Source of the DNA: Actinomycetes bacterium
GTDB lineage: Bacteria > Actinomycetota > Acidimicrobiia > Acidimicrobiales > Ilumatobacteraceae
DNA: 64,000 nucleotides
NCBI GenBank assembly: GCA_025360105.1
Contig: JANYCT010000095.1
Span: forward strand, 12,120-76,119
Reading direction: 5' to 3'
Below the pieces are notes generated by a model. It searched no databases and was not told the origin of the DNA. It saw only the letters and a program-made list of their open reading frames with translations. Below are positions 31,266 to 54,359 of the stretch, one piece after another; the first letter of the stretch is position 1; each line of letters opens with the position of its first letter. The position numbers and the translations under genes are program-made.

Positions 31266-31305
31266 ATCACCCAGGATGACGCAAGCAGGATGAGCGGATG
31301 AGCGT

Positions 31306-35435: not shown

Positions 35436-35542
35436 CCAGCACCCTGTTCAGACAGTGACAAGCGGAACTACTCTGCGTGCACTGCTGTTTAATCGGAACG
35501 GCGGGGGGATCTGGTCTGCAGCCAGAGGGAATCGGGTGTGTC

Positions 35543-38500: not shown

Positions 38501-41500
38501 CAAGTGCAGTTGCGCCAGGTGAACCTGCAGGGTTCGCAGTTGCGCCAGGTGCAGTTGCGTCAGGTGAACTTGCAGGGTTCGCAGTTGCGCCAGGTGCAGT
38601 TGCGTCAGGTGATGCTCACGGGTTCACAGTTGCGTCAGGTGCAGTTGCGTCAGGTGCAGTTGCGCCAGATCGACATCAGCGCATCGCCGTTGGCCGGGGC
38701 ACTGCTCACCTCGTTCAGCAGCATTGGCTCGATCGTCGACTGCTCGGCGGTCGATTGTCTCAGCCCCACGCTCACGCTCGGCGATGTCGCTGGCCACTTC
38801 CTCCCCGGAGCGACACTCGGCGCGCTGCTCGACATGGCCCTTGCCAGTGTCAATTTCGGTGGCATCGGTGACATCACCGGCCCCGGTTTGGACACCGCCT
38901 TCGCCACTTTGACCCTGGGCGACATCCTCGATCTCCTGCTGGCCGACCCAACATTCCTCGACATGACGCTCGAGCAGTTGGGCGGACCCGACTTGCTCGC
39001 CTCGGTCACCTTCGGTGACATCGTGCCTGGCGCCTATGGCGACATCACGATCGGCGATGTCCTCTCGGCGCTGGCCGATGCCGTCCCCGGCGATCCGGGA
39101 TACGGCCTCACGCTCGGCGATCTCCTCGCCGGCATCCTGCCCCCATCGGATTTCCCGTGGCAGAACCTCGACCTCGCCACCGCGACGCCCGTATTGCAGG
39201 CGGCAACATTCCCGCAAGCCGAGAACTACAACGTCGATATCACCAGCACCCTGCCCGCGGGTACTCAGGTCACCGCCCACCTCAGTGTCCCGAAGGGATA
39301 CTTGATCAACCCGGCTTCGATTTCATTGCTCGACGGAGCGGCCGGCTCTCCTGAGCCGACCTCCACGCAGACGGTCGATGCGGTTACCGGCGTCACTACC
39401 GTCGATATCACGTTGTACCCGCGCGAGGGACTTTCGAAGCTCCGGTTCAGTGCTGTCTCGCCCGTTGACCTCGGGCAGACAGCCAGTTTCACCATCACGC
39501 TCGAGGCAGCTGACTTTGCTTCGTCGGCCACCGCTGGCCAGGAACCGTTCACCATCGTCGATGGTTCCGAACCCTCGAACGACAACCCGGCCTCCGCGCC
39601 GTTGGCCACTCCGGGCAACCTGTATCTGGGGCACATTCAGAATGCCTCTGATGTCGATTTCTTCCGTGTGCATCTCACGCAGGGTCAGAGGCTGTCGGCA
39701 TTCTTGTCGAACCTTCCGGCCGATTACGACCTGTTGCTGTTCGGTCCCGTGCCGGCGCGGCTGCGTGGTGTTGCGAACAAGTCGCTCACCCCCTCACCCG
39801 ACGGTGGCCTCAGTCTGATCAGTGCCGACAACGCCGTGAATGCCCAGGTTGGCGCCGACATCAACACGGCACCTCCTGCCGGGATGCAGTTGGTCAGTGT
39901 CTCGAGCCGACGCGGCACGGGCGACGAACGCATCGACACCGCTGCACTGCCAGCGGGCGACTACGCGATCAAAGTCATTGGCTACAACAGCGCGAGTAGT
40001 AATAAGCCATACAGCCTGCGCATTCGCATCAGTGGCAGCGCGGCTGGGGCAGCATGCTCGGCCGTCGATCCTGCGGCTCCAGCGACCGACGCGGTGCAGT
40101 CGTTGATCGATTCAGGCGCCACCACGATCACCCCCGACACCACCACCATCTTGCTCACCAACGTCGCCCGGGCGCAGCGTGCCTACGGCGGCAGCGACGC
40201 CACGGTCGTCGGTGCGCTGAATCGTTTCGTCACAACGGTGAACGCTGATCCTTCCAGCTACGCCGGCACGAGTGCCGCAGTGGTCACGCTCGACGACCTC
40301 ACGTCGTACGGAGCCTGGGATGGCGCACCTTGTGATCCAGCGGCGGCCAATGCTGTGGTCAGCGAGATCGGTGATCGCATCGATCTCCTCCGCAGCCAGT
40401 GGCCGAACATCAAGAACGTGGTGCTCGTCGGTGCCGACGATCAGATCCCGTTTGCTCGCGTGGCCGATGCGGTTCCGTCGAACAACGAGAGCGAATACGC
40501 CAGCACCTTTGCCGACAATTCGCCGCTGAAGTCGGCGCTGTCGTTGGGTTACATGCTCACCGACAACCCGTACGCAGTTGGCCATCCCATTGCCGTTGGC
40601 AGCAGGGAACTGTTCGTTCCCGACATCGCTGTGGGTCGCCTCGTGGAATCGGCCAACGACATCCAGACCGCGCTCGACAACTTCGTTGGTTTCAACGGTC
40701 ACCTCAACCCCACCACGGCCTTCAGCGCTGGCTACGACTTCCTCGCCGATGGCGCCACCGCCGTGGCCGACGCGATCAAGGGTGGCGGCATCGTCGATCC
40801 CGCCAACGTGAACACCGACCTAATCAGTGAAACGTGGAACCGTCAGCAACTGATCGATGCGCTCGTCGGTGCGACTCCGCCGGGCCTCGCATCGGTGAAC
40901 GCGCACTTCGATCACTATCGGGCGCTGCCTGCCGACCAGAATGCCCTCGGCCACCTCACCGATCCGTTCACGTTGACTGACGTGACGAAAGGTGCCCCGC
41001 TCAACGGTTCGGTGATCTTCAGTATGGGCTGCCATGCGGGTCTGTCCGTGTCTGATGCGTCAATCGGTGCCAACGACACGAGCATCTCGGCTGACTGGGC
41101 TCAAACCTTCGCCGGCGCCGGCGCCGACGTCTTCGTCGGCAACACGGGCTACGGATACGGCGATGACACAGTTGTCGGTGCCACCGAGGAACTGATGCAT
41201 CAGTTCGCCAAGCGACTCGATGGATCAATGACCATTGGCGACGCGATGGCATATGCCAAGCAGAAGTACACCGCCGATCTGGCCGTCGTGAGCCCCTTCG
41301 ACGAAAAGGTGGTCAGCGAGGTCGTGTTCTACGGCCTGCCGATGTACACCGTGGGTAAGGCCATCCCCCGGACTGCTCCGTTCGCTGCGCTCAATGTCGG
41401 TGCTGCCATCAACGATTCGACCGGACTCGATTCGACGATCCGGACCATCGATTTGCCGGTGAAGCTCACGAGTGGCCCGTCGAACCTACACCGCCAGGAC

Positions 41501-44500
41501 ACCACCAAGGGCTCGTTCTACGAGGTCAACGGTGACACGCAGACATCGCCGTATCAGCCGGTACAGCCGAGCCTTTCCATCGACGTCACGCAATCCGGTC
41601 GCACTGCGCGTGGGGCGCTCATCACCGAGTTGACCTCCCAAGACGACAAGCCGTTCGATCCCGTGTACATGACACCAATCGATGACTCCACCACCGCGAA
41701 CCCCGAGGCCAACGTTGCTGGCGCCGTGTTCCCATCGGTGTTGCAGACGGTCAATCACCTCGAAACAGCCGGCGGCCCTAGCGATCAGTTGGTGTTCATC
41801 CCCGGCCAGTTCCGTGGCGACCCGGACTCGCCCACGGGGTCGGGCACGCAACGGTTGTTCACCAATGCGACCGCCTTGGTCTACTACGCGCCCGACGGCA
41901 ACACCGATACCACGCCTCCGACAATTGTGTCGACGAGGTCGACGGTGCTCACCGGATCCGCCGCCTTCTCGGTGAACGCCTTTGATGAGTCGGGCATCAG
42001 CCGGGTCTATGTGCTGTACACCGATTCAGCTCACCCGGGTACGTGGTTCGGCGCCGACCTTGCGTCGGCCGGTGGAGATACCTATACAGGTATTGCCACG
42101 GCCCCGACCGGCGCCGAGACGATCGACTACATGGTCCAGGTCGTCGACAGTGCCGGCAACGTGTCGGTCAGCTCGAACAAGGGCGACAACTTTGTCGGCC
42201 GAAACAACCCCACTCCTGTGGTGCTCGTGGGCCCCAAGACCTACGACGGAACCACGAGCGCGACGGTGGCTTCGTGCACCTTGTATGACGCAGCCGGTCT
42301 TGTGGTTGCTGACCCTGGAGTGGGTTGTGAAGCCACGGCGACCTTCGCGTATGCCGGTGCGGGCGACATCGTGCCGGTGAACGTCGATGGGATCACACTG
42401 ACGGGCACGAACGCCGCGCTCTATGCATTGTCCTCGACGACGGCCACAACCTTTGGCTCGATCTCACCGGTTTCATTGTCGGTAAGTCCAACCGACACCA
42501 ACGTGATCTACGGGCATCCGGCCACCTATCCGTTCGTTGTGTCGGGTTTCGTGAATGGCGATACGGACGGTTCGGGTGTGAAGCCGGCAAAGGGCTTCGT
42601 AGCACCAGTGTGTTCGTCGTCCTACACCACGTCCACGCCAGTGGCAGATTCACCGGTGGAGATCTCGTGCAGTGGTGGCTCGGCCGATAACTACAGCTTT
42701 GACACGTACTACTTCGGATCGCTCACCATCTCGCAGGCCCCGGTGCACCCCGTGGTCGCAGTCCTCAACAAGGTTGCGGACGGCACCACCGATGCAACCG
42801 TGTCGTCGTGCACGTTGTACGACGACACGAATGTAGCGGTGTCCGACGCCAACGTCGGTTGCTCCGCTACGTCGGCATCCTTCGACTCTGTCGGTCCAGG
42901 TATTGGCATCGGTGTGACGGTCTCTGGAATCACGCTGTTTGGCGGCACCGCCGTCAACTACTCGTTGAATTCAGGCACGGCGTTCACGATGGCAAACATC
43001 ACACTGCACGATGATCTGCATGCCGTCGTCACCGTGGATGACAAGCCATACGACGGCGGCACCAACGCAACCGTGTCGTCGTGCACGGCGCTCGACATCA
43101 ACGATCTACCCGTCGTTGCTGTTGGCTGTGACGTCGGCAACGCCTCCTTCCAGAGCGCTGATGCAGGTATCGGCATTCCAGTGGATGTTTCGGGCATCAC
43201 ACTGACCGGCGCCAACGCTGCTGACTATTCGCTGGCCTCGGACACGGTGTCGGCGACAGCGTCGATCACTCCGGTTGTGCTCACGGTGACCCCGCAACCC
43301 ACCGATGTCATCTACGGCCGCACGGCGGCCTATCCGTTCGATGTGACGGGTTTCGTGAATGGCGAAACCGACGGGTCCGGCATCAAGCCGGCCAAGGGAT
43401 ACGTGGCCCCGGAGTGTTCTTCGGGTTACAAGACCACGTCAGACATTTCGGAGGCACCGTTTGATGTCTTCTGTGCACGCGGTACGGCTGACAACTACAC
43501 CTTTGATGTGGCTGCACATTCGGTGTTGACGATGCTGCGGGCGCAAGTGCACGCAGTGGTCGTGGCGAACAACAAGCCCTATGACGGCACGACAGATGCA
43601 ACGTTGTTGTCGTGCACGCTGCTGGACGCCGGTAACGAGGTTGTGGTCGGTGCCGGTTGTGATGCGACGGTTTCCTTCACGAGTGCCTATGCGGGTCTCC
43701 ATGTTCCCGTGTCGGTGGATCTGGTCACGCTGAATGGCCCCGATTCGGGGAACTATGTACTGCAGTCGTCGTCGGTTGATCCAGCAGCCATTGGTCAGGT
43801 CACCCTCACGGTGACTCCGGTTGCGAAGTCGGTGACGTATGGTGATGCTCCGCCGGTGTACACGTTTGGTGTGTCCGGGTTTATCACGGGTGAGGGTGCG
43901 GCCAACGCGGCGGGGTATGTGGCGCCGTCGTGCACGTCGTTGTACACGGCAGCGACACCGGTGGCTTCGTCTCCGTCGATTACGTGTAGTGGTGGCAGCG
44001 CGAGCAATTATTCGTTCTCGTATGGCACGGCTGCGGTCACGGTGACGCCAGCCAGCCTGCTGGTGGATTACACCGGTCCATTGACCGCAACGTCGGCAAC
44101 GGCATCAGCGACGGTTACCTTGACGGCAACGGTCACGGGGCTCTGCGCCAATGGGGCTGCCGTGACCATGACGGTGACGGACGATGGCACCGGCGTCGTG
44201 CTCGGCTCGTACCCACTGGTCGCATCCGCGAGCGGTTTGGTGACGAAGTCTGGCGTGGTGCTGCCGGTGGGCAGTGTGTACGCCATCGACGTCGTCGCCG
44301 CCGATTCCGCAAACTGCATCGGGGCCAGCGACACTAGCTTCCTGGATGTGACCCCGGTGACGCCTCCGACCGGAAACTCTCACGGTTCGGGCTCGTACAT
44401 GGTGGGCCTCACGAAGGTCAACTTCGGGTTCTACGGATTCACCAAAGCGGTCAAGGGCGGCTTCACCTCGGGCGGCTACGTGGACTGGAAGGTATCCCGC

Positions 44501-44830
44501 AACGTCCGGTTCACCGGTGCGATCTCTGGATACACCGCAGCGTGCCCCGCGGGCACCGCGACACCTGCGGGCACGAAGTGCTCGTATATGACCGGTACCG
44601 GAAGCTTGTTCACCTGGGTGCCCGGCAGGGTTCGCGGGGGGTCGTGGGTGAGGACATCTACGGGTGTGGCATTCCAGTTGACGGTTGCCGATGGCGGCGT
44701 GGTCACACCAAGGATTGGGCCACCGACCCGTAACCCGGACTACATCCGCATGAATTTCCCGGTGCCGGTGGTGGTCGGCGAAACGACCACGCTGGTGGTC
44801 ACATCGTCCGGGAACATCGGAGTGCAGTAA
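35543..44830 (+). CDS. Giant secreted multidomain protein (about 3,095 aa): CSLREA-like motif, right-handed beta-helix repeats, pentapeptide array, PPC domain, clan-CD-like peptidase domain, YDG/MBG-like modules
   Basis: ORF 35477-44830. I prefer GTG 35543, which yields a Sec-type signal peptide VSRSAFRKTCVSVVAMSLLGGVLVVGVSPVVPARA/LD. Domain calls come from motifs read in the translation (see findings). Confidence 0.9.
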   Translation: MSRSAFRKTCVSVVAMSLLGGVLVVGVSPVVPARALDPNYVIDSTIDAPDAAPGDGVCASASNGCTLRAALQQAVAAGVDATITVDSTLLATVPTFALASELMVAVPAGTTITLQGSSTIVGRPIISGGGTHRVFNVEGPGAFHIVGFEITDGQGAIIGAAGTPRIDPTTSTVYEPQSGGYPTDSACGPSSALTGISVRVSLGTGWPSAFRPTCTDVVIAGSSYTLGGSHLGPWFPDRPADAFALPSTPGIADQQCPSGSVATGFAGRSGSAVDRVKLRCAPLLTDGTLGAGTYIGEVGDDFIGDPSGPSLERGGSPFPLHSCPVGAFASGFTGFYGLNYNYVYSPYYPGYTYTAESYIQGLALTCANSTDAPSITPGNGGGILATGDLTLDKVAVTNNATASGNGGGVYSSAALTIVNSTVSGNAAAGAGGGVYAVGSLSINDSTIRDNSAQAAPIGGDSPKGGGVYMANENFDVAMADTVVSGNTAASDGGGLSMDAAGFTMERSAITSNSAPNGEGGGLFMPFFASTAACGGECSGSLVMRNVTVAGNGAQGASGLKISNLNPVDAALTNVTVTNNDSVGGSAGLSLSYWGHKSIEDSIVSGNTTPSENNDCDYFYYYGNGTPSVISSGNCYAQDPSPQLNADPGLKALGNYGGRVNGAGDVIPVTPIPGDSNAAGAGTCPMSVDARSLPRPVASCDLGAFELTLAAGDVTNVPNLGQPVILPSLRSGASSVPITDIPASAFLPATGNGSADATAGASTAQIRGIALGDTGLSAVQLRQVSLGAIPLDSKVLDSIALSQLPLTYSSSSGNGTGWHAYLLDVNLTELAAQPLNTVSFGEVLAATKDLAVAQQLSLDQVDFSATPLGSLPVGAIALGAVPLSALVSTDGSPVDWCAIVAKYSTASCGPGQEIDPTTASLVSISLQGVPLRQVPLSAMQLRQVDLTPAQLRQVPLYGVPLRQVDMAATQLRQVQLRQVQLRQVQLRQVQLRQVNLQGSQLRQVQLRQVNLQGSQLRQVQLRQVMLTGSQLRQVQLRQVQLRQIDISASPLAGALLTSFSSIGSIVDCSAVDCLSPTLTLGDVAGHFLPGATLGALLDMALASVNFGGIGDITGPGLDTAFATLTLGDILDLLLADPTFLDMTLEQLGGPDLLASVTFGDIVPGAYGDITIGDVLSALADAVPGDPGYGLTLGDLLAGILPPSDFPWQNLDLATATPVLQAATFPQAENYNVDITSTLPAGTQVTAHLSVPKGYLINPASISLLDGAAGSPEPTSTQTVDAVTGVTTVDITLYPREGLSKLRFSAVSPVDLGQTASFTITLEAADFASSATAGQEPFTIVDGSEPSNDNPASAPLATPGNLYLGHIQNASDVDFFRVHLTQGQRLSAFLSNLPADYDLLLFGPVPARLRGVANKSLTPSPDGGLSLISADNAVNAQVGADINTAPPAGMQLVSVSSRRGTGDERIDTAALPAGDYAIKVIGYNSASSNKPYSLRIRISGSAAGAACSAVDPAAPATDAVQSLIDSGATTITPDTTTILLTNVARAQRAYGGSDATVVGALNRFVTTVNADPSSYAGTSAAVVTLDDLTSYGAWDGAPCDPAAANAVVSEIGDRIDLLRSQWPNIKNVVLVGADDQIPFARVADAVPSNNESEYASTFADNSPLKSALSLGYMLTDNPYAVGHPIAVGSRELFVPDIAVGRLVESANDIQTALDNFVGFNGHLNPTTAFSAGYDFLADGATAVADAIKGGGIVDPANVNTDLISETWNRQQLIDALVGATPPGLASVNAHFDHYRALPADQNALGHLTDPFTLTDVTKGAPLNGSVIFSMGCHAGLSVSDASIGANDTSISADWAQTFAGAGADVFVGNTGYGYGDDTVVGATEELMHQFAKRLDGSMTIGDAMAYAKQKYTADLAVVSPFDEKVVSEVVFYGLPMYTVGKAIPRTAPFAALNVGAAINDSTGLDSTIRTIDLPVKLTSGPSNLHRQDTTKGSFYEVNGDTQTSPYQPVQPSLSIDVTQSGRTARGALITELTSQDDKPFDPVYMTPIDDSTTANPEANVAGAVFPSVLQTVNHLETAGGPSDQLVFIPGQFRGDPDSPTGSGTQRLFTNATALVYYAPDGNTDTTPPTIVSTRSTVLTGSAAFSVNAFDESGISRVYVLYTDSAHPGTWFGADLASAGGDTYTGIATAPTGAETIDYMVQVVDSAGNVSVSSNKGDNFVGRNNPTPVVLVGPKTYDGTTSATVASCTLYDAAGLVVADPGVGCEATATFAYAGAGDIVPVNVDGITLTGTNAALYALSSTTATTFGSISPVSLSVSPTDTNVIYGHPATYPFVVSGFVNGDTDGSGVKPAKGFVAPVCSSSYTTSTPVADSPVEISCSGGSADNYSFDTYYFGSLTISQAPVHPVVAVLNKVADGTTDATVSSCTLYDDTNVAVSDANVGCSATSASFDSVGPGIGIGVTVSGITLFGGTAVNYSLNSGTAFTMANITLHDDLHAVVTVDDKPYDGGTNATVSSCTALDINDLPVVAVGCDVGNASFQSADAGIGIPVDVSGITLTGANAADYSLASDTVSATASITPVVLTVTPQPTDVIYGRTAAYPFDVTGFVNGETDGSGIKPAKGYVAPECSSGYKTTSDISEAPFDVFCARGTADNYTFDVAAHSVLTMLRAQVHAVVVANNKPYDGTTDATLLSCTLLDAGNEVVVGAGCDATVSFTSAYAGLHVPVSVDLVTLNGPDSGNYVLQSSSVDPAAIGQVTLTVTPVAKSVTYGDAPPVYTFGVSGFITGEGAANAAGYVAPSCTSLYTAATPVASSPSITCSGGSASNYSFSYGTAAVTVTPASLLVDYTGPLTATSATASATVTLTATVTGLCANGAAVTMTVTDDGTGVVLGSYPLVASASGLVTKSGVVLPVGSVYAIDVVAADSANCIGASDTSFLDVTPVTPPTGNSHGSGSYMVGLTKVNFGFYGFTKAVKGGFTSGGYVDWKVSRNVRFTGAISGYTAACPAGTATPAGTKCSYMTGTGSLFTWVPGRVRGGSWVRTSTGVAFQLTVADGGVVTPRIGPPTRNPDYIRMNFPVPVVVGETTTLVVTSSGNIGVQ
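38312..38716 (+). repeat. 27 consecutive in-frame pentapeptide units (13 exact QLRQV), a 15-nt-period coding repeat
   Basis: Read directly. Leu/Ile/Met occupies every fifth residue from SLQGV to LLTSF. The DNA units use varied synonymous codons. Confidence 0.9.
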
Positions 44831-44835
44831 GCAGT

Positions 44836-44871
44836 TGCGTGCTGATCGTGGGGGGTCACGATCAGCACGCA
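44836..44871 (+). terminator. Perfect 15-bp stem / 6-nt loop hairpin between the giant gene and the ABC genes (attenuator or terminator candidate)
   Basis: TGCGTGCTGATCGTG-GGGGGT-CACGATCAGCACGCA, starting 6 nt after the stop codon. There is no clean U-tract (CATGGTGTTATC follows). Confidence 0.5.
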
Positions 44872-44908
44872 CATGGTGTTATCGGGGACCGACCAAGGGG
44901 GAGAGACC

Positions 44909-45937
44909 ATGCTCAGAGCGGCATTACGCGATTTGCAATGGCGCAAGAAGAGATTCGTGATTGCGATGCTCGGGGTCGCGCTCGTCTTCGCAATGGGTTT
45001 GATCATGACCGGTCTCACCGAGTCGTTCTCGCTCGAGGTGGATCGCACGTTGAACGCGATCGGCGCCGAGGCTTGGTTGGTCTCCGACAGTGCGACCGGC
45101 CCCTTCACATCGTTCTCGCCGGTGCCCACCGCACTGGTCACCGACTCGGAGGCGTCGCCGGCATTGGTGTTGCGCCAGAGCATCGATGACAACGGCAAGA
45201 TCGTCGACGTCGTCGTGATTGGAGCACAACCCGGCCGACTGGGGTCGGTGACTGCGTCGAGCGGCAAGAGCGTTGCGGGTCCCGGTGAGGCCGTTGTGGA
45301 CAACGACTTCACCCTTGCCGGTCTCGGTCAGTCGTTCTCCATCGGTGGGAAGAGCTTCAAGGTGGTCGGCACCGTGTCGGGGCAACGCCTCTACGCAGGA
45401 TTACCAATGGTCTACATCGCGCTCTCCGAAGCCCAAAAAGTGTCGCTGCAGGGTCAGCCGTACGCGTCGACGTTCATCTACGCAAAAATGCCCACAACTA
45501 TCCCGACGGGGTTGAAGGCGATGTCGAACGCCGAGGTGCGAACCGACGTGCTGCGCCCATTGCAAAACGCAATGGACTCGATCGCGCTCGTGCGTGTGTT
45601 GCTGTGGATCGTGGCTGCCACGATCATCGGTTCGGTGCTGTACCTACAGGCGATGGAACGCACACGCGACTTCGCGGTGTTTAAGGCAACGGGTACCTCC
45701 ACTGCCGCGATCGGTGTGGGACTCGCGCTCCAGGCGGTGGTGCTTTCGCTGGCCGCCGCTGCGTTGGCCGCGGTCTTCGCCGCCTTGCTGGCACCGACGT
45801 TCCCCATGCACGTAGAGATACCGACGAGTGCATACGAGCTCCTTCCCGTGGTCACGGTGGTGGTTGGTCTGCTCGCCAGCTTGATCGCACTCCGCAAGAC
45901 CGCAACCGTCCAACCCGCTGCTGCGTTCGGAGGCTGA
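44909..45937 (+). CDS. FtsX/MacB-type ABC transporter permease
   Basis: ORF 44873-45937. Start ATG 44909 (AAGGGGGAGAG upstream). MLRAALRDLQWRKKRFVIAMLGV..., a large extracytoplasmic loop after TM1, and three C-terminal TM helices. Confidence 0.88.
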   Translation: MLRAALRDLQWRKKRFVIAMLGVALVFAMGLIMTGLTESFSLEVDRTLNAIGAEAWLVSDSATGPFTSFSPVPTALVTDSEASPALVLRQSIDDNGKIVDVVVIGAQPGRLGSVTASSGKSVAGPGEAVVDNDFTLAGLGQSFSIGGKSFKVVGTVSGQRLYAGLPMVYIALSEAQKVSLQGQPYASTFIYAKMPTTIPTGLKAMSNAEVRTDVLRPLQNAMDSIALVRVLLWIVAATIIGSVLYLQAMERTRDFAVFKATGTSTAAIGVGLALQAVVLSLAAAALAAVFAALLAPTFPMHVEIPTSAYELLPVVTVVVGLLASLIALRKTATVQPAAAFGG

Positions 45938-45938
45938 G

Positions 45939-46928
45939 ATGTCACAACCCGGAGCCGATCTCCATATCAAGGACCTCACAGTCGAGTTCAGCAAGGGCGA
46001 CTACACGGTGCGCCCCCTCGACAACATGAGTGTCACCGTGAAAGCCGGTTCGCTGGCGCTGCTGCTGGGGCCGTCGGGCTGCGGTAAGACCACCTTGCTG
46101 TCGTGTCTTGCAGCGATCCTCAAACCTACGTCGGGCACGATCACCTATGGCGACAAGGACATCACGGCGTTGAGCGGCAAGGCCCTCACCGATCACCGAC
46201 GACACGGTGTCGGTGTGGTCTTCCAGGCGTTCAACCTGGTGCCGAGCCTGAACAGCATCGAGAACGTTGCGGTACCCATGCGATCGGCCGGCGTGAAGGC
46301 GCGTGCAGCAAAGGCAAAGTCGATCGAGTTGCTCGAGGGAGTTGGTCTCGGTGAGCGCTTGACGCACAAGCCGAACAGCCTCAGCGGAGGTCAGCAGCAG
46401 CGCGTTGCCATCGCTCGCGCGCTCGCGCTCGATGCGCCACTGGTGCTCGCCGATGAGCCGACCGCTCATCTCGACTACATCCAGGTCGAGGGCGTGCTGC
46501 GTCTCATTCGCCGTCTCACCGATGGCGGGCGCGTGGTGGTGGTGTCGACTCACGACGATCGCATGTTGCCCCTCGCCGATCAGATCATCGAGATGCGCCC
46601 CGACTTCTTGCCCCAGAGCGACGCTGCTCCCGTACAGGTCACCCTCGTTGCCGGTCAACACCTTTTCAATCAGGGCGATCCGAGCGATCTCATCTACATG
46701 GTCGAGGATGGCCAGGTCGATGCCGTGCAGGATCTCGGCGAAGGCGAGATCGTGTTGGCCACGATGGGCCCCGGTGAGCACCTCGGCGAGATGGGACCGC
46801 TGTTTGGTCTGCGACGATCAGCGACAGTGCGCGCCCGCACGGACGCAACACTCACCGGCTACACCGTGAAGGCATTCCGTGATCTGGTTGGCGCTGAACG
46901 GCTGCCCTCGCTGATACGCGGCCGATAG
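45939..46928 (+). CDS. ABC transporter ATP-binding protein fused to a C-terminal cyclic-nucleotide-binding domain
   Basis: 329 aa. Walker A GPSGCGKTT, signature LSGGQQQRVAIARA, Walker B LVLADEPT. From about aa 232: ...LFNQGDPSDLIYMVEDGQV...GEHLGEMGPLFGLRRSATVRA (phosphate-binding cassette). GGAGG 5 nt upstream. Starts 1 nt after the permease stop. Confidence 0.9.
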   Translation: MSQPGADLHIKDLTVEFSKGDYTVRPLDNMSVTVKAGSLALLLGPSGCGKTTLLSCLAAILKPTSGTITYGDKDITALSGKALTDHRRHGVGVVFQAFNLVPSLNSIENVAVPMRSAGVKARAAKAKSIELLEGVGLGERLTHKPNSLSGGQQQRVAIARALALDAPLVLADEPTAHLDYIQVEGVLRLIRRLTDGGRVVVVSTHDDRMLPLADQIIEMRPDFLPQSDAAPVQVTLVAGQHLFNQGDPSDLIYMVEDGQVDAVQDLGEGEIVLATMGPGEHLGEMGPLFGLRRSATVRARTDATLTGYTVKAFRDLVGAERLPSLIRGR

Positions 46929-47004
46929 CTACTCCTCACCACCGGGTGACGTGTGAGCCGTCGACGCGCGATACTGGAGCGACCCTCCACGTCAGGAACA
47001 TGTC

Positions 47005-47421
47005 ATGAACGAGATCATTGTCGGAGTCGATGAAAGCGCTACAGCCCACAAGGCTGCCGTCGAGGCTTCCGAACTGGCGTCGATGACCAACCGCCCCTTG
47101 CACGTGGTGATGGCGTTGTCGCGCGGCTCGGTGCAGCAGGTGCGTAGTGGATCAGAGACCTGGATCCACGATCCGATCACCCATGGCGAGCAGGCCCTTG
47201 CGGCGCTCGTTGGCGAGTTGGCGTGCACGGCGCCGGTTACGTATTCGGTGGTGATGAAAGATCCGGCGAAAGCGCTCTGCGATGAGGCCGCACGGCTCGA
47301 CGCGTGGATGATCGTGGTCGGTAACAAGCGGGTGCAGGGGGCTGCGCGCGTGTTGGGCTCGATTGCCAACGACGTGGCCAAGACGGCGCCGTGCAATGTG
47401 CTGATCGTGCACACCACCTAA
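47005..47421 (+). CDS. Universal stress protein family
   Basis: 138 aa. IIVGVDESATAHKAA... and ...MIVVGNKRVQGAARVLGSIANDVAKTAPCNVLIVH. Confidence 0.85.
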   Translation: MNEIIVGVDESATAHKAAVEASELASMTNRPLHVVMALSRGSVQQVRSGSETWIHDPITHGEQALAALVGELACTAPVTYSVVMKDPAKALCDEAARLDAWMIVVGNKRVQGAARVLGSIANDVAKTAPCNVLIVHTT

Positions 47422-47433
47422 AACGGGCCCTGA

Positions 47434-48024
47434 CTAAAACGGACTGAGTCCCATGCGCCCGCGAATGCCGATCATCTCACCGAGGTGAGCGTGCCGGTGC
47501 GCGACGCATTCCCATTGCACGAACCAACTCACCGGTTTGTCGGTCCACATCGTGTGCAGCCACTCGAGTCCCGCGCTCGGAAGGCCGGCCTTGTGTTCGA
47601 GTTGATAGCTGGCTGACGGCACCGAGTCGAGCGCCATCATGCTCAGGTGCTTGAGCCATTCGTCGGTCGCAGTTGTCACGGCGTTCACGTACGTGAGGAG
47701 GTGCTCGAGATTGAGCGCCAGGGTGACGCTTCGATCCTCGGTTTCGGACAGTCCTCCCGCTCTCGGGACCATGTCGAGGCCGAGCGCGCTGCGGTGCTGG
47801 TCGAGGATCGGTGCATGATTACGGATCGCGGTGTTGAGGGCAAGGTCTTCGTGGTAGGTCGTGTGGAACAGCAGCGCGGCGATGCACGATCCACCGCCCG
47901 GTGGGGTCTCAGCCCAGCGCTCGATGGGCACGAAATTGGCGATGGCCGAGTCGAAGCGCGATGTCACCGTCGCATGGTCGTTCTCGATCCACGTCTGCAG
48001 GTCCACCTCGCGAGCTTGGCACAT
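47434..48024 (-). CDS. DinB-like (DinB_2 / mycothiol-dependent-enzyme-like) four-helix-bundle protein
   Basis: ORF 47434-48126 trimmed to ATG 48024. His-rich helices (LLFHTTYHEDL, ...CVAHRHAHLGEM). The family assignment is tentative. Confidence 0.5.
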   Translation of the reverse strand: MCQAREVDLQTWIENDHATVTSRFDSAIANFVPIERWAETPPGGGSCIAALLFHTTYHEDLALNTAIRNHAPILDQHRSALGLDMVPRAGGLSETEDRSVTLALNLEHLLTYVNAVTTATDEWLKHLSMMALDSVPSASYQLEHKAGLPSAGLEWLHTMWTDKPVSWFVQWECVAHRHAHLGEMIGIRGRMGLSPF

Positions 48025-48056: not shown

Positions 48057-48914
48057 ATGCTCGGAACAGTCGGAGACCTCGTCGAGGACATCGTGGTACA
48101 TCTCGGTGGACCCGTGAATGTGGCATCCGATACCAAGGCCGTGGTCGTGCGTCGCCGCGGCGGCAGTGCAGCGAACATGGCCGTCAGTGCCGTGCGCGCC
48201 GGAACACCGGCCCGCTTCATCGGTCAGGTTGGCGACGACGCGCACGGTGATGTGCTCATCGCTGCGTTGCGAGCCGAGGGTGTCGATGTCGTGGTGCGTC
48301 GGGGTGGTCGTATCGGCACCATCGTGGTGCTCGTCGACCAAGCCGGTGAGCGCACCATGCTGAGCGATCGCGGCGGTTGCACCGACCTCGACCATCCCAA
48401 CCCCGCGTGGCTCGACGGTCTCAGCACGCTGCATGTGCCGCTCTATTCGTTGGTGGTGTCCCCGCTCGCGGAGACCGCTGCGACGCTGATCGGTTGGGCG
48501 CACGAGCGAGCGATCACCGTGTCGATCGATGCATCGTCGTCAGCGGTCATCACCGACTTCGGCGTGCAACGAACCGTCGAGATGCTCGACCGATTGCACC
48601 CCACCGTGTTGCTGTGCAACGAGATGGAAGCCGAGTGCCTCGGCGCGGCCGCCGAGCCTGCACGCATCGGCGCACAGGTGACGGTGGTGAAGCAAGGTGC
48701 AGGTCCCGCGTTGGTGATGCGACCGGGTGCTGCCACTGTCTCGGTATCCGCCCCACCGATCGAGGATGTTCGCGACACCACCGGCGCAGGCGACGCGTTC
48801 GCTGCGGGCTTCCTCGCAGCGTTCGTCTCCGGTGACTCAGCGGTGGTGGCGGCCGAGGCCGGTCATCGCAGCGCGGCCGCCGCGATCATCGCGGCATCGC
48901 GGCAAGGGGTGTAG
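48057..48914 (+). CDS. PfkB-family carbohydrate kinase
   Basis: ORF 47901-48914. Homology begins at MLGTVGDLVEDIVV (ATG 48057; ATG 48036 is also possible). Signature DTTGAGDAFAAGFL. Confidence 0.85.
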   Translation: MLGTVGDLVEDIVVHLGGPVNVASDTKAVVVRRRGGSAANMAVSAVRAGTPARFIGQVGDDAHGDVLIAALRAEGVDVVVRRGGRIGTIVVLVDQAGERTMLSDRGGCTDLDHPNPAWLDGLSTLHVPLYSLVVSPLAETAATLIGWAHERAITVSIDASSSAVITDFGVQRTVEMLDRLHPTVLLCNEMEAECLGAAAEPARIGAQVTVVKQGAGPALVMRPGAATVSVSAPPIEDVRDTTGAGDAFAAGFLAAFVSGDSAVVAAEAGHRSAAAAIIAASRQGV

Positions 48915-51900
48915 GTCGCGAGATATCGCTGAGCGCGATGTCGAGATGATGGAGAAAAGTCTCGCAGTCATTCGGCGAGAACACGATGGGTGGCTTGATC
49001 TTGAGCACGTTGTGGTGTGGTCCCTCGGTGCTCAACAGCACACCGTCCTGCTTCATGCGTTCGACGAGGATGCTCAATTCGGTATCGGCTGGCTCCTGCG
49101 TGTCACGGTTGCGCACCAACTCGACGCCGATGAACAGTCCGTGGCCGCGCACGTCGCCGATGAGGGAGTACTTCTCGGCCAACTCGCTCAGTCCCAGCAT
49201 CATCTGCTCACCGACAACCGCCGCGTTGTGCATGAGACGTTCGTCGCGGATCACGTCGAGCACGGCCAGACCAATCGCGGCAGAAACAGGATTGCCTCCG
49301 AAGGTGCTGAAGTACTCCATGCCGTTGGCAAATGCCGCGGCGATCTCGGGACGGGTGACGACGGCGGCCATCGGATGGCCGTTGCCGATGGGTTTGCCCA
49401 TCGTGACGATGTCGGGCACCACGTCCTGCGTCTCGAACGCCCACATGTGGGATCCGACTCGTCCGAACCCGATCTGTACCTCGTCGGCAATGCACACCCC
49501 GCCCGCAGCGCGGACGTGTGCGTACGCGTGCGCCAGATACCCATCGGGGAGTGCGAGCATGCCGCCGGTGCCGAGGATGCCTTCACTGAAGAACGCGGCC
49601 GGTCGTTTCCCCGCAGCGGCCATCTCACCGATGAGCGCGGCAACGCTGTCGGCATATCCGCGGCCGGCATCTTCGTCGCCGTAACGTAGGCGGCCGCGGT
49701 AGAGGTCGGGCATTTCGGTGACCCAGACATGGTTGCTTTGCCCCTCGCCGCCGGGTCCAGCGAACTTGTATGGGCTGACCTCGACGATGGAGGTGACATT
49801 GCCGTGGTAGGCGTGATCTATCGTGATGACATCGCGCTGCGCTGTGTAGGCGCGGGCCAGGCGCAACGCAAGGTCGTTGGCCTCGCTGCCCGAGTTCACC
49901 ATGAACACCACCGACAACTCCTCGGGAAGCGTCGCTGTGAGCCGGCGTGAGTACTCCACCAGATTGTCGTGGAGGTAGCGCGAGTTGGTGTTGAGCTGCG
50001 CTGCTTGAAGAGACCCGGCGGCTACCACCCGCGGGTGGCAGTGACCCACATGGCACACGTTGTTCACCATGTCGAGGTACGTGTTGCCGCGATCGTCGAA
50101 CAGGTGAATGCCCTCGCCGCGCACGATCTTCAACGGACTGTCGTAGGCAAGGCTCAACGAACGCCCCAATACGTAGCGCCGCTCGCGCTGCAGCCACGCT
50201 GCGTCGCGTTGCACGACGACGCTGCAGTCCACCGGAAGGCCGAGCACGAGATTCGGATTGGGGAAGACGCTGCCCCAGACATCCCACTGGCTACGAGCGA
50301 CGACGCCGATGATCTGGGTCGCGCTCCAACCGCACAGGTGGGTCATCACCTGGAAGTGCAGATGCGGCACCCAGCCGCCGTTCTCTGCGGGGGTACCGAG
50401 GCGAGCGATCACGTCGCCCGCAGCGAGGTGCTGACCGACGGTCAGTGTTTGCAGGCTTGCGGGCGACAGATGTCCGTACAGCGTCCAGAACGGCGCGCCG
50501 TCGTCGGTCTCGTGCCGCAGCACCACAATGCCACCGAAGCCCAAGCGCACGGTCTCGACCCCTAGGTCGACCACCACCGCGTCGAGGGGTGCGAGTACGT
50601 CGTCCCCGGCAGGTGCGAACAGGTCGATACCGATATGGATGGTGCGCGCTTCGCTGGAGTCGATGGTCTCGAACTCAGGGGCGGAATACATCGAGCGGTT
50701 CTCGCCGTAACGACCAATCGCAGTAGAGGTCGCCAGCGCTTCCGTGTCAGTGAGACCCGCGAGTGTTCCTGCATCCGCAACGACCCCGCTGAGATCGAGC
50801 ACCCTCAAATGTTCGCGACTCATATCGCGGCGCAGCACCGGTCCACAGCGATGCCCGTTGTGCTCGAGCCAGCGCTCGATGTGTGGCCGTGTCGGCGAGG
50901 CCTCGTACCGACACGCGGCACGGAGACGCATGATCTCGATATGGCGATTCTGGGCGAGCAGCAGCTGCAGCCGTTCCCACACGTCTCGCTGACTGATGAG
51001 GAGATAGCCGTTCGTCGGATTGTCACGAATCTGCGCAGCGGCGACGCAGATGCTCGTGGCGTAGCGGGTGAGGATGAGGTCGAACAGCACATCCGCGTCG
51101 ATCTCGTCGAGGGGATTCTCGTCGTGGTACGCGGCCACCAGTGGCAGCACGCTGCCGATCGCGTCTGTGGCACCGATCATGGCGTAGGCGCACGCGATGG
51201 CGACCTCGTTCACTCGCCAGGTGCGCACGATGTCGCCGAAGTCGATGATGCCGCTGACGGTTCCGTCGGCCGCGAGCAGCACGTTGTAGTCGTTGGCGTC
51301 GTTGTGAATGATCTGACGCGGACGTTCCGCCAGACGCGGCGCAACGTGATCGACGAAGCGGCGCAGGACACCCTCGACCGCGGCGCGTTTCACGGGATCG
51401 TCGATGAGTGCCACGAGATCGAGGTGGTCCCCGGCTCTGGCGAGATCCCAACGATGCTCGCGTTCCGCTCCCGGATGCTCGAACTGCGCGAGCACCTTGT
51501 CGAGTCGGGCGAGCAGCGTGCCGAGCGACGCTGCGGAGTGGGCCCGCTTCTGGCCGTCGGGTTCGATGTTGTTGCCCCAGACGATGCCTGGCAGCCACGT
51601 GGTGAGGCGCACACAACGTAGGTTGCCAAGGGGATCCGTGACGCGGGGCAAGATCTCAGCCGCGGTAGTCGCCACGAGGCGCTGCACCGGGAGCTCGGGA
51701 GCCGTTTGCTCGAGGAAGGTCAACACGGCCGCTTGCAGTTCGACGTCGTCTGGTTCGGCACCGGCGTCGTGCAGGCGGAGCAGGAAGCGATTACCGTCGG
51801 GCGCTGTGACCTTGATGTTCGTGTCGAGCTCGCCGGGCAGTTCGTCGAGTTCGCCAGCGATGCCGTAGCACGCCATCAGCGTGTTGTTGACGAAATCCTC

Positions 51901-51969
51901 GAGTGACTCCATAGGAACCACGATTCTGCCACCTTCACGATTCGGTCGGTGGCGTCGTCGCGTGTTCAC
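48886..51969 (-). CDS. Triple-fusion protein: APH/hydroxylysine-kinase-like phosphotransferase + M23 metallopeptidase domain + class III aminotransferase-fold (phospho-lyase-like) domain
   Basis: 1027 aa. HNDANDYNVL...IDFGD (APH). HIGIDL...HLHFQV (M23 HxxxD / HxH). DEVQIGFGRVG...TMGKPIGNGHP (PLP lysine). Start is GTG 51969 or ATG 51912. Confidence 0.9.
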   Translation of the reverse strand: MNTRRRHRPNREGGRIVVPMESLEDFVNNTLMACYGIAGELDELPGELDTNIKVTAPDGNRFLLRLHDAGAEPDDVELQAAVLTFLEQTAPELPVQRLVATTAAEILPRVTDPLGNLRCVRLTTWLPGIVWGNNIEPDGQKRAHSAASLGTLLARLDKVLAQFEHPGAEREHRWDLARAGDHLDLVALIDDPVKRAAVEGVLRRFVDHVAPRLAERPRQIIHNDANDYNVLLAADGTVSGIIDFGDIVRTWRVNEVAIACAYAMIGATDAIGSVLPLVAAYHDENPLDEIDADVLFDLILTRYATSICVAAAQIRDNPTNGYLLISQRDVWERLQLLLAQNRHIEIMRLRAACRYEASPTRPHIERWLEHNGHRCGPVLRRDMSREHLRVLDLSGVVADAGTLAGLTDTEALATSTAIGRYGENRSMYSAPEFETIDSSEARTIHIGIDLFAPAGDDVLAPLDAVVVDLGVETVRLGFGGIVVLRHETDDGAPFWTLYGHLSPASLQTLTVGQHLAAGDVIARLGTPAENGGWVPHLHFQVMTHLCGWSATQIIGVVARSQWDVWGSVFPNPNLVLGLPVDCSVVVQRDAAWLQRERRYVLGRSLSLAYDSPLKIVRGEGIHLFDDRGNTYLDMVNNVCHVGHCHPRVVAAGSLQAAQLNTNSRYLHDNLVEYSRRLTATLPEELSVVFMVNSGSEANDLALRLARAYTAQRDVITIDHAYHGNVTSIVEVSPYKFAGPGGEGQSNHVWVTEMPDLYRGRLRYGDEDAGRGYADSVAALIGEMAAAGKRPAAFFSEGILGTGGMLALPDGYLAHAYAHVRAAGGVCIADEVQIGFGRVGSHMWAFETQDVVPDIVTMGKPIGNGHPMAAVVTRPEIAAAFANGMEYFSTFGGNPVSAAIGLAVLDVIRDERLMHNAAVVGEQMMLGLSELAEKYSLIGDVRGHGLFIGVELVRNRDTQEPADTELSILVERMKQDGVLLSTEGPHHNVLKIKPPIVFSPNDCETFLHHLDIALSDISRPTPLAAMPR

Positions 51970-52033
51970 TTCCTACCGAACTCACACCAGGAACCGACCG
52001 AGGGTGCTGCGCTGCCGGGTATGGTTCGCCCAC

Positions 52034-52576
52034 ATGAACCAATGGTTCGGTTACCTGACACGCGCATCGGGCATCGTCGCCATGGTGTTGATGGTCGCAT
52101 CGTTGTGCTGGGGGCTGTTCTTCTCAGCTCGCGAAACCGGCAAGCGGCTGCGGCCAGCGTGGTGGCTCGATCTGCACAACTGGTTGGGTGGTCTCGCGCT
52201 GGTGTTCACCGGTGTGCACATGTTTGCCGCCTTCGCCGATTCGAACCTTGCCCTCGGTCTCCGCGATGTGCTGTTACCCGGTGCCGGTAAACGTCAGAGT
52301 GGCGCCCTGAACTGGGGCGTGGTCGCGTTCTACGGTCTTGCTGTCGTGGTGTTCACGTCGTGGCCGAAGAAGCTGTTCAAGCGGCCGGTGTGGCGAGCCG
52401 TGCACCTGTTCTCGGTGCCGGCCACCGTGTTTGCCTGTGTGCATGCCTATCGGATGGGCAGCGATGCCAGCACGTTCTGGTTCAAGGCGCTGCTGGTGCT
52501 CGTCGCTGGTGCGGCTGCGTATCCGTTGGTGATTCGCGTCGCGGGCGTGGTGCTCGGTCGTCTCGACTCGCGTTGA
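52034..52576 (+). CDS. Ferric-reductase-like (MsrQ/NOX-type) bis-heme transmembrane protein
   Basis: ORF 51881-52576 trimmed to ATG 52034 (MNQWFGYL...). Two His pairs in TM helices: LH-x13-H (LHNWLGGLALVFTGVH) and H-x12-H (VHLFSVPATVFACVH). Confidence 0.75.
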   Translation: MNQWFGYLTRASGIVAMVLMVASLCWGLFFSARETGKRLRPAWWLDLHNWLGGLALVFTGVHMFAAFADSNLALGLRDVLLPGAGKRQSGALNWGVVAFYGLAVVVFTSWPKKLFKRPVWRAVHLFSVPATVFACVHAYRMGSDASTFWFKALLVLVAGAAAYPLVIRVAGVVLGRLDSR

Positions 52577-52665
52577 CGGCTCGTTCGAAGGCCCGCTCTT
52601 TACTCGACCTTGGCACGCTTCTGGCGGGGATCTCAACGAGGTCTTGAACGACTCTTACCCCGAAC

Positions 52666-53397
52666 GTGCCTACTGGAGGCATGGAAGATCTCTGGCCAGC
52701 ACCCATCACTGATGCGCCGATGGGAGACCCGCTGATGCAGGAGCGTCTTGCTCGTCTCGCCGCCCGCCGTGGCGCGCCTGCCCCAACGGCACGGACCAAT
52801 CGCCCTGTGGCCAAGACGGTAACCAAGCCGGGGTCCAAGCAGGGGTCCAAGACGAAGCGCCGTCACGCGGCCAAGGGCAGTCGTATCGCGGCATTGGCGA
52901 TGAGTGTCGGCACCACGGTCGGCTTGAGTGGCTACTTCTCTCACCTCGACGCCTCAGCCGCCTCAGCTGGATCGTCGACGTTGTCGGGCACTGCGACTGC
53001 GGTGGGCGCCAATGCGAGTGCAACAAATTCGGTTGCCGCCGGTACTGCGTCCACCACGGCTACAGCGGCCGCGGCCAAGACGACCACCGCCACTGGAACG
53101 GCGCTCAAGGATGGCACCTACGCCGGGGCGACCTCCAACAACCGTTGGGGACCCGTGCAAGTGCAGATCATGGTCAGCGGCGGCGCGATCGCCGACGTCA
53201 CTGCGTTGCAGACTCCGAGCGATCAAGACCGCAGCGTGCAGATCAACGACTACGCCACGCCGATCCTGCGCACCGAGACACTGACGGCACAGAGCGCCAC
53301 CATTCATACGGTGTCGGGTGCCACCTACACCAGCAACAGCTACAAGCAGTCGCTGCAGTCGGCGATCGACGTGGCACGCGCCGCGACTGCCGGGTGA
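52666..53397 (+). CDS. Membrane-anchored FMN-binding domain protein (ApbE flavinylation substrate)
   Basis: 243 aa. TM helix IAALAMSVGTTVGLSGYF, Ala/Thr-rich linker, FMN_bind core ...GTYAGATSNNRWGPVQVQI...IHTVSGATYTSNSY (SGAT flavinylation motif). The exact start is uncertain. Confidence 0.8.
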   Translation: MPTGGMEDLWPAPITDAPMGDPLMQERLARLAARRGAPAPTARTNRPVAKTVTKPGSKQGSKTKRRHAAKGSRIAALAMSVGTTVGLSGYFSHLDASAASAGSSTLSGTATAVGANASATNSVAAGTASTTATAAAAKTTTATGTALKDGTYAGATSNNRWGPVQVQIMVSGGAIADVTALQTPSDQDRSVQINDYATPILRTETLTAQSATIHTVSGATYTSNSYKQSLQSAIDVARAATAG

Positions 53398-53401
53398 TGT
53401 G

Positions 53402-54199
53402 ATGACCACGATCGCGAACGCACAACAATTCGGCTTGCATCACGTCGAGTTTGTGATGGGCATGGCGGTTTCCATCGACGTACGCGACAACGTCGAGCGC
53501 GAGGTCATCAACGAGGTCGTGGCGTGGCTGCACCATGTAGACGCGACGTTCAGTACCCACAATGTGGAGAGTCCCATCAGCCGGCTCGGCTCGGGTGAGT
53601 TCACCCTCGACGACATGAGCGACGAGGTGCTCGGCGTCTTGGCGCTGTGCGAGGAACTCAACACCGACAGCGACGGTGCCTTCGACGTGCTCGCCGTGCC
53701 CGCACCGAACGGCAGTCTGCTCGACCCGTCCGGAGTCGTGAAAGGTTGGTCCGTCGAGCGCGCCGCCGCGATGATGACGGCTCGCGGCGCCGAGAATTTC
53801 TGCATCAACGCAGGTGGCGATATTGCGATTCGTGGTGAGTCAAGTCCAGGCGAGCCCTGGCGCATCGGAGTCCGTCATCCCGATCATGCCGATCTCAGCG
53901 CGGCGGTCATCACCGGCTCGGGCCGACTTGCGGTGGCCACGTCGGCCACGTACGAACGCGGGGCGCACATCATCGACCCCACCACGGGTGAACCCACGGC
54001 CGATCTCGCCAGCGTGACCATCATCGGCCCCGACCTCACGTTTGCCGACGCGTACGCCACGACGGTGTTCGTGATGGGCGTGGCCGGACTGAGCTGGTTG
54101 ATGGACAAGCATCCCGACTATGCCGGGTTCATCATCACCCGTGACGACCTCACCGTGTCAACTCCCTCATTCGATCAGTACGTGGCCACCGACATCTGA
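53402..54199 (+). CDS. apbE: FAD:protein FMN transferase (ApbE family)
   Basis: ORF 53318-54199 trimmed to ATG 53402 (GTG 53399 also possible), just after the FMN_bind stop. ...MGMAVSIDV...NAGGDIA...VATSATYERG.... Confidence 0.88.
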   Translation: MTTIANAQQFGLHHVEFVMGMAVSIDVRDNVEREVINEVVAWLHHVDATFSTHNVESPISRLGSGEFTLDDMSDEVLGVLALCEELNTDSDGAFDVLAVPAPNGSLLDPSGVVKGWSVERAAAMMTARGAENFCINAGGDIAIRGESSPGEPWRIGVRHPDHADLSAAVITGSGRLAVATSATYERGAHIIDPTTGEPTADLASVTIIGPDLTFADAYATTVFVMGVAGLSWLMDKHPDYAGFIITRDDLTVSTPSFDQYVATDI

Positions 54200-54359
54200 G
54201 CAGCTCCCGCGCCTCGAATATGGCTGTCACACCCATCTGCAACTCTGTGACCATGCAGCTCAGAACGCCGCTACACTCACCCGGTCATATTCACCCTGCC
54301 CCATTGCGGGGCCCCGCACGCTTTAGGCGCGTTCGGGTCCGAAGGGAGGTTCCACACGC

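Follow-up and report, generated by a model that had tools for sequence, protein, structure and literature searches.

The window analysed here, a 64,000-nucleotide stretch of DNA from an Ilumatobacteraceae bacterium (contig JANYCT010000095.1), contains a two-gene module on its forward strand: a permease gene (44909..45937) and, directly downstream, a gene for an ATP-binding cassette (ABC) ATPase that ends in a cyclic-nucleotide-binding (CNB) domain. The ATPase open reading frame (ORF) runs uninterrupted from an ATG start over 45939..46928 and encodes 329 amino acids. A preliminary description, made from the letters of the DNA, had read this gene as a MacB/LolD/FtsE-type nucleotide-binding domain (NBD) joined to a C-terminal barrel for cyclic mononucleotides (cNMPs), and had proposed a scan with the Pfam profiles ABC_tran (PF00005) and cNMP_binding (PF00027). 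Both profiles score well above their cut-offs. ABC_tran covers residues 27-176 with 119.2 bits (E 2.5e-34) against a cut-off of 25, and cNMP_binding covers residues 235-317 with 71 bits (E 8.6e-20) against one of 27.5. The fusion of a MacB-type ABC ATPase to a C-terminal CNB domain is genuine.

The NBD occupies residues 1-220 (45939..46598). It carries a Walker A motif, GPSGCGKTT (residues 44-52, nt 46068-46094), a Q-loop (Q96), the signature LSGGQQQR (residues 148-155), a Walker B motif with the catalytic Glu, LVLADEPT (residues 168-175), a D-loop, AHLD (residues 176-179), and an H-loop (H205); the motifs quoted in the preliminary description, and the cassette described below, lie where it had put them. 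The nearest PDB sequences and folds are those of MJ0796, MacB, LolD, HrtA, YtrE and FtsE, and the domain belongs to the MJ0796/MacB/LolD subfamily, as expected of a type VII ABC system. The best NCBIfam matches are FtsE, DevA, MacB and LolD, each below its cut-off by a wide margin; against the equivalog and subfamily cut-offs, the scores are 175 vs 264.85 bits for FtsE, 164 vs 307.75 for LolD and 174.9 vs 295.8 for DevA.

An interdomain linker (residues 221-231, 46599..46631), poorly conserved and predicted to be flexible (predicted local distance difference test score, pLDDT, ~59), leads to the CNB domain at residues 232-329 (46632..46925), whose first residue falls at nt 46632, as the preliminary description had it. 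Compared on their own with the PDB, the C-terminal 115 amino acids hit the cAMP-binding domains of PKA RI-alpha (E 6e-16). The phosphate-binding cassette (residues 283-299, nt 46785-46835), part of the stretch GEHLGEMGPLFGLRRSATVRA at residues 279-299, is intact, and in this alignment GEMGPLFGLRRSATVRA lines up residue for residue with GELALIYGTPRAATVKA of PKA RI-alpha; G283-E284 and R293-S294-A295 fall on the Gly-Glu and the Arg-(Ser/Thr/Ala)-Ala of the PKA cassette. An AlphaFold2 model of the ATPase, built from a 56-sequence alignment (mean pLDDT 86.7), places a beta-barrel after the NBD and a linker of low confidence (~221-231), and ends in two short C-terminal helices (310-317 and 319-326). 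The domain resembles those of PKA regulatory subunits and CRP in its barrel and in the Gly-Glu and Arg-Ser/Ala-Ala contacts of its cassette, at the same spacing. It differs from them in that the model has no N-terminal helical bundle and only the two short helices at the C terminus, and in its output domain, an ABC ATPase that precedes the sensor in the chain.

Conservation was measured in an alignment of 56 homologues, down to 55% identity, that spans Ilumatobacteraceae to Mycobacterium. The Walker A and B, catalytic Glu, Q-loop, signature and H-loop residues are invariant, and judged by these residues the ATPase is catalytically complete. In the cassette, G283, E284, G286, R293, A295 and R298 are likewise invariant, and S294 is retained in 82% of the sequences. 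The mean majority-residue frequency is 0.86 for the cassette, which is the best-conserved stretch of the C-terminal domain, compared with 0.79 for the NBD, 0.67 for the barrel overall and 0.46 for the linker. Thus, the invariant ATPase motifs and cassette contacts, together with the high conservation of the cassette, point to purifying selection on ligand binding. Two database relatives, P0058 and P0103, were excluded from the alignments; both have unrelated internal residues across the region from Walker B to the H-loop, consistent with assembly frameshifts.

That a frameshift in sequencing or assembly might have joined two separate genes into the one in the window had been named in the preliminary description as a possible refutation. 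Such an artefact can be dismissed with near certainty, because the assemblies of four independent metagenome runs, from rock and sediment, give the identical sequence, in contigs at 52-112x depth with neither a difference nor a gap over 44800-47500. The survey of the fusion and its neighbours that had been suggested leads to the same result. PF00005 and PF00027 occur together in 119 of the 120 best database relatives, most of them ~325-337 amino acids long, and in all 120 listed matches to the Mycobacterium asiaticum protein, from many Mycobacterium species; the two-domain make-up is therefore shared by 239 of 240 listed homologues, and a permease gene lies upstream in every context sampled. 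The Rv0073 protein cluster, to which we return below, is found on at least 1000 contigs, which also argues against an artefact. An exhaustive HMMER search with the C-terminal 115 amino acids was dominated by proteins with multiple CNB domains, whose scores are additive; when ten single-stretch matches were re-scanned, P0421 (340 amino acids) and five shorter proteins had both ABC_tran and cNMP_binding.

The preliminary description had taken a cNMP domain at the C terminus of an FtsX-partnered ATPase to be apparently new. This does not hold, for the architecture is that of the Rv0073/Rv2564 family of Mycobacterium tuberculosis: the window ATPase is 58% identical to Rv0073 over 324 of its 329 residues (E 3e-131), with the cassette conserved. 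One relative, P0171, is called 'Uncharacterized ABC transporter ATP-binding protein Rv0073' in UniRef, its cluster being the one counted above, and another, P0183, is a one-residue variant of Rv0073. The named close relatives of the window ATPase are Ilumatobacter and metagenome-assembled genomes of Ilumatobacteraceae. A scan of reference genomes used generic NBD peptides as patterns, and 79 of its 80 loci are plain MacB-type ATPases, with L001 the sole informative one. This locus, from M. asiaticum, gave the one full-length match outside Ilumatobacteraceae among the 80 loci listed (58% identity, residues 4-318). Here, a 349-amino acid MacB_PCD/FtsX permease gene is followed by a 330-amino acid ABC_tran plus cNMP_binding gene, and the module occurs twice in tandem (L001, 4424-8561), the two ATPases being ~85% identical to each other. 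Behind the tandem modules lie genes for a catalase-like protein and a cytochrome b561. In an M. tuberculosis complex genome, the Rv0073-type ATPase gene is likewise preceded by that of a 349-amino acid MacB_PCD/FtsX permease.

The window protein shares with this family its full-length similarity to Rv0073, the order ABC_tran then cNMP_binding within ~330 residues (329 in the window, 330 in the mycobacterial proteins) and a MacB_PCD/FtsX permease of 342-349 amino acids encoded directly upstream on the same strand; between the window permease and those of M. asiaticum, identity is 41%. On these sequence grounds, we assign the gene to the widespread actinobacterial Rv0073 family, which is already annotated and is uncharacterised in the literature, and regard the module as the Ilumatobacteraceae counterpart of M. 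tuberculosis Rv0072/Rv0073. It differs from the latter in its origin, in Ilumatobacteraceae of rock and sediment metagenomes, and in what lies downstream, which is an amidohydrolase and an aminotransferase (Rv0074/75) after Rv0073 and a universal stress protein (USP) gene in the window. Ilumatobacteraceae belong to the class Acidimicrobiia; the window copy is a new member from another actinobacterial class than that of Mycobacterium. It widens the phylogenetic range of the family and offers protein from a non-pathogen, but no new concept; to anyone versed in the cAMP signalling of mycobacteria the family would be familiar at once.

The ABC-cNMP architecture was reportedly first noticed by McCue et al. 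in 2000. Rv2564 and the adjacent Rv2565 have since been listed with PF00027 (PMC4886424), and Rv2563/64 and Rv0072/73 have been drawn as type VII systems of the form '[ECD/TM/NBDr]', in which the NBD carries a regulatory domain (PMC7761784). In annotations, Rv0072/73 and Rv2563/64 ('GlnQ') stand as putative glutamine transporters. The same authors doubt the 'glutamine importer' label of these genes, an annotation that the type VII fold does not support (PMC7761784). Mycobacterial CNB domains were tied to 'predicted ATPase activities' in a 2024 JBC paper, according to which many such effectors are uncharacterised (PMC11107214). The ABC-cNMP ATPases are thus one of the still uncharacterised types of cAMP effector in mycobacteria. 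They form a large family, whose conservation extends from Acidimicrobiia of the sea and of rocks to the tubercle bacillus, and M. tuberculosis, like M. asiaticum with its tandem pair, has two copies of the module.

The partner gene (44909..45937) encodes a type VII ABC permease that is HrtB/MacB-like by Pfam, AlphaFold2 and Foldseek. Its longest ORF begins at 44873; however, the ATG at 44909, which is preceded by the ribosome-binding site GGGGGAGAG, gives a protein of 342 amino acids, and because the homologues are mostly ~340-347 amino acids long and start at the equivalent position, 44909 is most likely the start. Pfam finds FtsX (40.7 bits) and MacB_PCD (34.9 bits). The AlphaFold2 model (pLDDT 86.3) has four transmembrane (TM) helices: TM1 (residues 2-51) is followed by a beta-rich extracytoplasmic domain of ~155 residues (~52-206, nt 45062-45526), TM2 (207-250), a coupling helix (252-261), TM3 (265-297) and TM4 (306-331). 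A type VII permease is recognised by its four TM helices, by a large extracytoplasmic domain that separates TM1 from TM2 and by a coupling helix that follows TM2, and the models and matches assign the type VII fold to both partners. The top Foldseek match is HrtB (TM-score 0.72-0.78), followed by MacB, LolC/E, YbbP and YtrF, and the sole sequence match in the PDB is again HrtB (7w78_B, E 3.4e-11, full length).

What the preliminary description called an 'FtsX-partnered' ATPase is so in one sense, since the permease has a Pfam FtsX domain, but the protein as a whole is HrtB/MacB-like; cell-division FtsX ranks only 47th among its Foldseek matches, at a TM-score of 0.34. It scores 6.3 bits against the actinobacterial FtsX model (cut-off 250) and is far under the NCBIfam cut-offs for FtsX, LolC and DevC. 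We therefore rejected an identity as FtsEX, for which both the FtsE and FtsX equivalog cut-offs are missed and the fold match is poor, and one as LolCDE or DevBCA, for which those of LolD and DevA are missed. No gene of the membrane-fusion type (HlyD/DevB family) appears in the gene lists of the contexts examined. With MacB, LolCDE and FtsEX the module shares the NBD subfamily, an FtsX-type membrane domain of four helices and the insertion of an extracytoplasmic domain after TM1, ahead of TM2, but the ATPases of those systems lack a CNB domain.

In both sequence and fold, the closest solved structure to the permease is that of HrtBA, the heme-efflux pump of Corynebacterium diphtheriae (PDB 7W78 and related), and HrtA, at 38% identity, is among the close matches of the NBD. 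Both are two-gene type VII systems without a membrane-fusion partner; however, HrtA lacks the C-terminal domain that the window ATPase has as its CNB, and overall identity is only 21%. The heme ligand of HrtB, Glu219 at the outer end of TM2 (PMC9271180), aligns with M234 of the window permease, in a column that varies among M, L, R and V in the family. HrtB-like heme export was rejected because this Glu is not conserved. By the criteria tested, the module is a type VII system with an HrtB-like shape, and is neither FtsEX nor a heme pump.

The two genes are tightly joined. The 3' end of the permease gene contains a ribosome-binding site, GGAGG (45929-45933), followed by the gene's TGA (45935-45937), a single spacer base and the ATG of the ATPase (45939-45941). 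This layout, with GGAGG in the last codons and a one-base gap, suggests translational coupling. The gap is 0-5 bases in every related locus examined, from Ilumatobacteraceae to Mycobacterium, and the permease is the sole invariant neighbour of the ATPase gene in the contexts sampled. A scan of 44600-47600 found neither promoter nor terminator, so that operon limits are inferred from spacing only.

What might a CNB domain do on such a machine? Control of the ATPase by a cyclic nucleotide is a reasonable reading of the sequence, and on balance we favour, with modest confidence, a mechanism in which a cyclic nucleotide, most likely cAMP, at the C-terminal domain tunes ATP hydrolysis. The two genes would encode a two-component, MacB-fold type VII machine, presumably a dimer of the permease with a dimer of the ATPase. 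A cyclic mononucleotide would bind the cassette of the minimal CNB domain on its flexible linker and reposition the two short C-terminal helices, which would alter the readiness of the two NBDs to dimerise and hydrolyse ATP. ATP-driven closure would then travel along the coupling helix and the long stalk formed by TM1 and TM2 into the extracytoplasmic domain. As in HrtBA, MacB and LolCDE, this domain would work on a target at the membrane's outer face, from which type VII systems in general have been proposed to reach their substrates (PMC9271180). If this is correct, cAMP gating of a type VII ABC motor would be a new output class for bacterial cAMP signalling, and the 'glutamine importer' annotation would be corrected.

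The sign of such control may be argued either way. Most characterised bacterial effectors fused to CNB domains, such as CRP, the acetyltransferase Rv0998 and MloK1, are activated by cAMP, and because of this we consider activation, through relief of autoinhibition, somewhat more likely than inhibition. The same machine could run with the opposite sign, the liganded C-terminal domains holding the NBDs apart so that the cNMP acts as a brake, much like the regulatory domains with bound ligand in several ABC importers. Documented C-terminal regulatory domains on ABC ATPases are in fact inhibitory, methionine inhibiting MetN and molybdate ModC, and MetN chains with C-terminal domains are among the fold matches of the window ATPase. 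The C-terminal helices in its model are, however, too short for a dimeric clamp of the MetN/MalK type, and given this and the prevalence of cAMP-activated effectors we regard a brake as possible but unlikely. The OpuA transporter, which c-di-AMP inhibits via C-terminal CBS domains on its ABC ATPase, is the best-documented case of an ABC ATPase under a second messenger; it speaks for the brake and is at the same time the precedent for such control as such (PMC7673798). The mechanism proposed for the window module resembles that of the osmolyte importers OpuA and OpuC, in which a nucleotide second messenger binds a C-terminal domain of the ABC ATPase and gates transport (PMC7673798). OpuA and OpuC differ in having a tandem CBS sensor, a cyclic dinucleotide ligand and an importer with a substrate-binding domain.

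Tuning of the ATPase by a cNMP faces several difficulties, and these count against it. The CNB domain lacks the N-terminal bundle and the long C-helix, which form the signal route of most characterised CNB domains. A flexible, poorly conserved linker and a predicted TM-score (pTM) of only 0.67 for the ATPase model leave no interdomain docking surface defined. The direction of control is argued solely by analogy. The ligand is taken to be cAMP because of the Arg-Ser-Ala cassette, which we take to be like those of CAP and MloK1, and this is the sole basis for preferring cAMP over cGMP. Nor is there a clue to the substrate, as the contexts examined contain no third gene universally linked to the module, and the one that HrtB might have offered fails because the heme-ligand Glu is not conserved. 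Finally, a review calls Rv0072/73 and Rv2563/64 'experimentally not characterized' (PMC7034087).

Some of these points could mean that the C-terminal domain is no cNMP sensor, and instead binds another small molecule, as some CRP/FNR barrels do, or serves as a structural or docking module. The domain is minimal in just the sense given above, and the cassette region of the model is of low confidence (pLDDT <50 at residues 286-288). Members of the superfamily that do not bind cNMPs typically lose the Gly-Glu and Arg-Ser-Ala contacts to the ribose and cyclic phosphate. Here, in contrast, these contacts are invariant and are the most conserved part of the domain, and other cNMP-signalling genes recur beside the module, as set out below. 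We therefore think a non-sensor role quite improbable.

The fold of the permease bears on a further alternative, that the module is a cyclic-nucleotide exporter whose C-terminal domain is a substrate-recognition site feeding cAMP to the pump. Mycobacteria do secrete cAMP, and a study that found Rv1636 not to be directly responsible for cAMP efflux names no efflux route (PMC11107214). However, HrtBA has no transmembrane cavity, and lateral substrate access from the outer face has been proposed as a common property of type VII systems (PMC9271180). The window permease has that fold, and the CNB domain is tethered below the NBD, distant from any pathway. An exporter of this kind seems very unlikely indeed.

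The preliminary description had pointed to a 'dedicated cyclase' upstream in the same string of genes. A class III cyclase is indeed encoded at 31623-35435 (1270 amino acids, with Guanylate_cyc at 77.8 bits, AAA_16 and TPR), but it is absent from the two closest relatives, L083 and L084, whose ATPases are 97% identical to that of the window, and nine other distinct contexts are free of cyclase genes to a distance of 8-10 kb from the module. Between the cyclase and the permease is a 3117-amino acid ORF with pentapeptide repeats and Peptidase_C25, YDG and MBG (MBG_2) domains; it also has a hydrophobic N-terminal stretch and 'QLRQV' repeats. The two ORFs form a 13.6-kb segment (31283-44880) between a DUF5318 gene and the permease. 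In L083 and L084, synteny runs to 31282 and resumes at 44881, with ~220 bp in place of the 13.6 kb. Because the closest relatives keep the module without this segment, both the cyclase as a dedicated partner and the giant ORF as cargo were rejected, the former also on account of the nine other contexts. GC content is 0.61-0.65 throughout and gives no sign of a foreign origin for the segment.

Other genes for cNMP signalling recur beside the module, and we count them in favour of cNMP control. Standalone CNB proteins are encoded next to it in L081, L082, L088 and L089, and in L088 and L089 a Metallophos protein adjoins the CNB protein; the metallophosphoesterase Rv0805 hydrolyses cAMP (PMC3776917). 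A PG_binding_1/YkuD L,D-transpeptidase gene converges on the module, within ~15 nt, in L082, L088 and L089, and in this clade a local cNMP circuit may be tied to the cell wall. The ATPases of the clade are 60-64% identical to that of the window, and a divergent standalone CNB protein is encoded upstream of the module (clade coordinates: L082, 8476-8904; L088, 5783-6870 and 8988-9626; L089, 5784-6895 and 9006-9854). In L091 (4750-6516), the gene for a 588-amino acid protein with cNMP_binding and Patatin domains converges on the ABC-cNMP gene, with a 3' overlap of a few bases. Rv2565 is presumably a patatin-like protein as well. Adjacent to Rv2564 at the M. tuberculosis locus, it too has a CNB domain (PMC4886424), and it has been listed as an esterase only (PMC10865251).

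From the CNB-patatin neighbour in L091, with Rv2565 and its own CNB domain as a parallel, and from the L,D-transpeptidase genes come hints of an envelope- or lipid-related role. These would fit a more ambitious form of the tuning mechanism, in which the whole family is a second-messenger-gated mechanotransmitter that couples cytoplasmic cAMP, through the HrtB-like type VII motor, to work at the outer face. That work could be the extraction of a lipid or lipophilic compound, or the activation of an envelope enzyme. We hold this broader proposal to be doubtful; if true, it would be the first case of an ABC motor that puts envelope remodelling under inside-out control by a cNMP, and the L091 neighbour makes a lipid-related role for the module worth considering.

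Downstream of the ATPase, after 76 nt, a gene on the forward strand encodes a USP of 138 amino acids (47005..47421; Pfam Usp, 75 bits). It is in the same position in L083 and L084 and is missing there from the more distant contexts examined, so that it is a possible member of the operon in the window lineage only. Its nucleotide-binding motif reads G-x5-G-x5-G-S, compared with the canonical G-x2-G-x9-G-S, and on this reading its binding of a nucleotide is uncertain. Some mycobacterial USPs, such as Rv1636, bind cAMP (PMC11107214).

Three further features of the window were observed at a greater distance from the module. On the reverse strand, 48886-51969 encodes a 1027-amino acid ORF whose L083 counterpart (1004 amino acids) joins APH (an aminoglycoside phosphotransferase-like kinase), Peptidase_M23 and Aminotran_3, an unusual trio. 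A stretch of ~2.3 kb (51944-54223) has no counterpart in L083 or L084, where synteny skips from 51943 to 54224, just before rpsF-ssb-rpsR-rplI-dnaB. Upstream of the cyclase, a 1044-amino acid PAS-PAS-GGDEF-EAL protein is encoded at 26988-30122, syntenic in L083; the window thus encodes c-di-GMP as well as cNMP signalling proteins.

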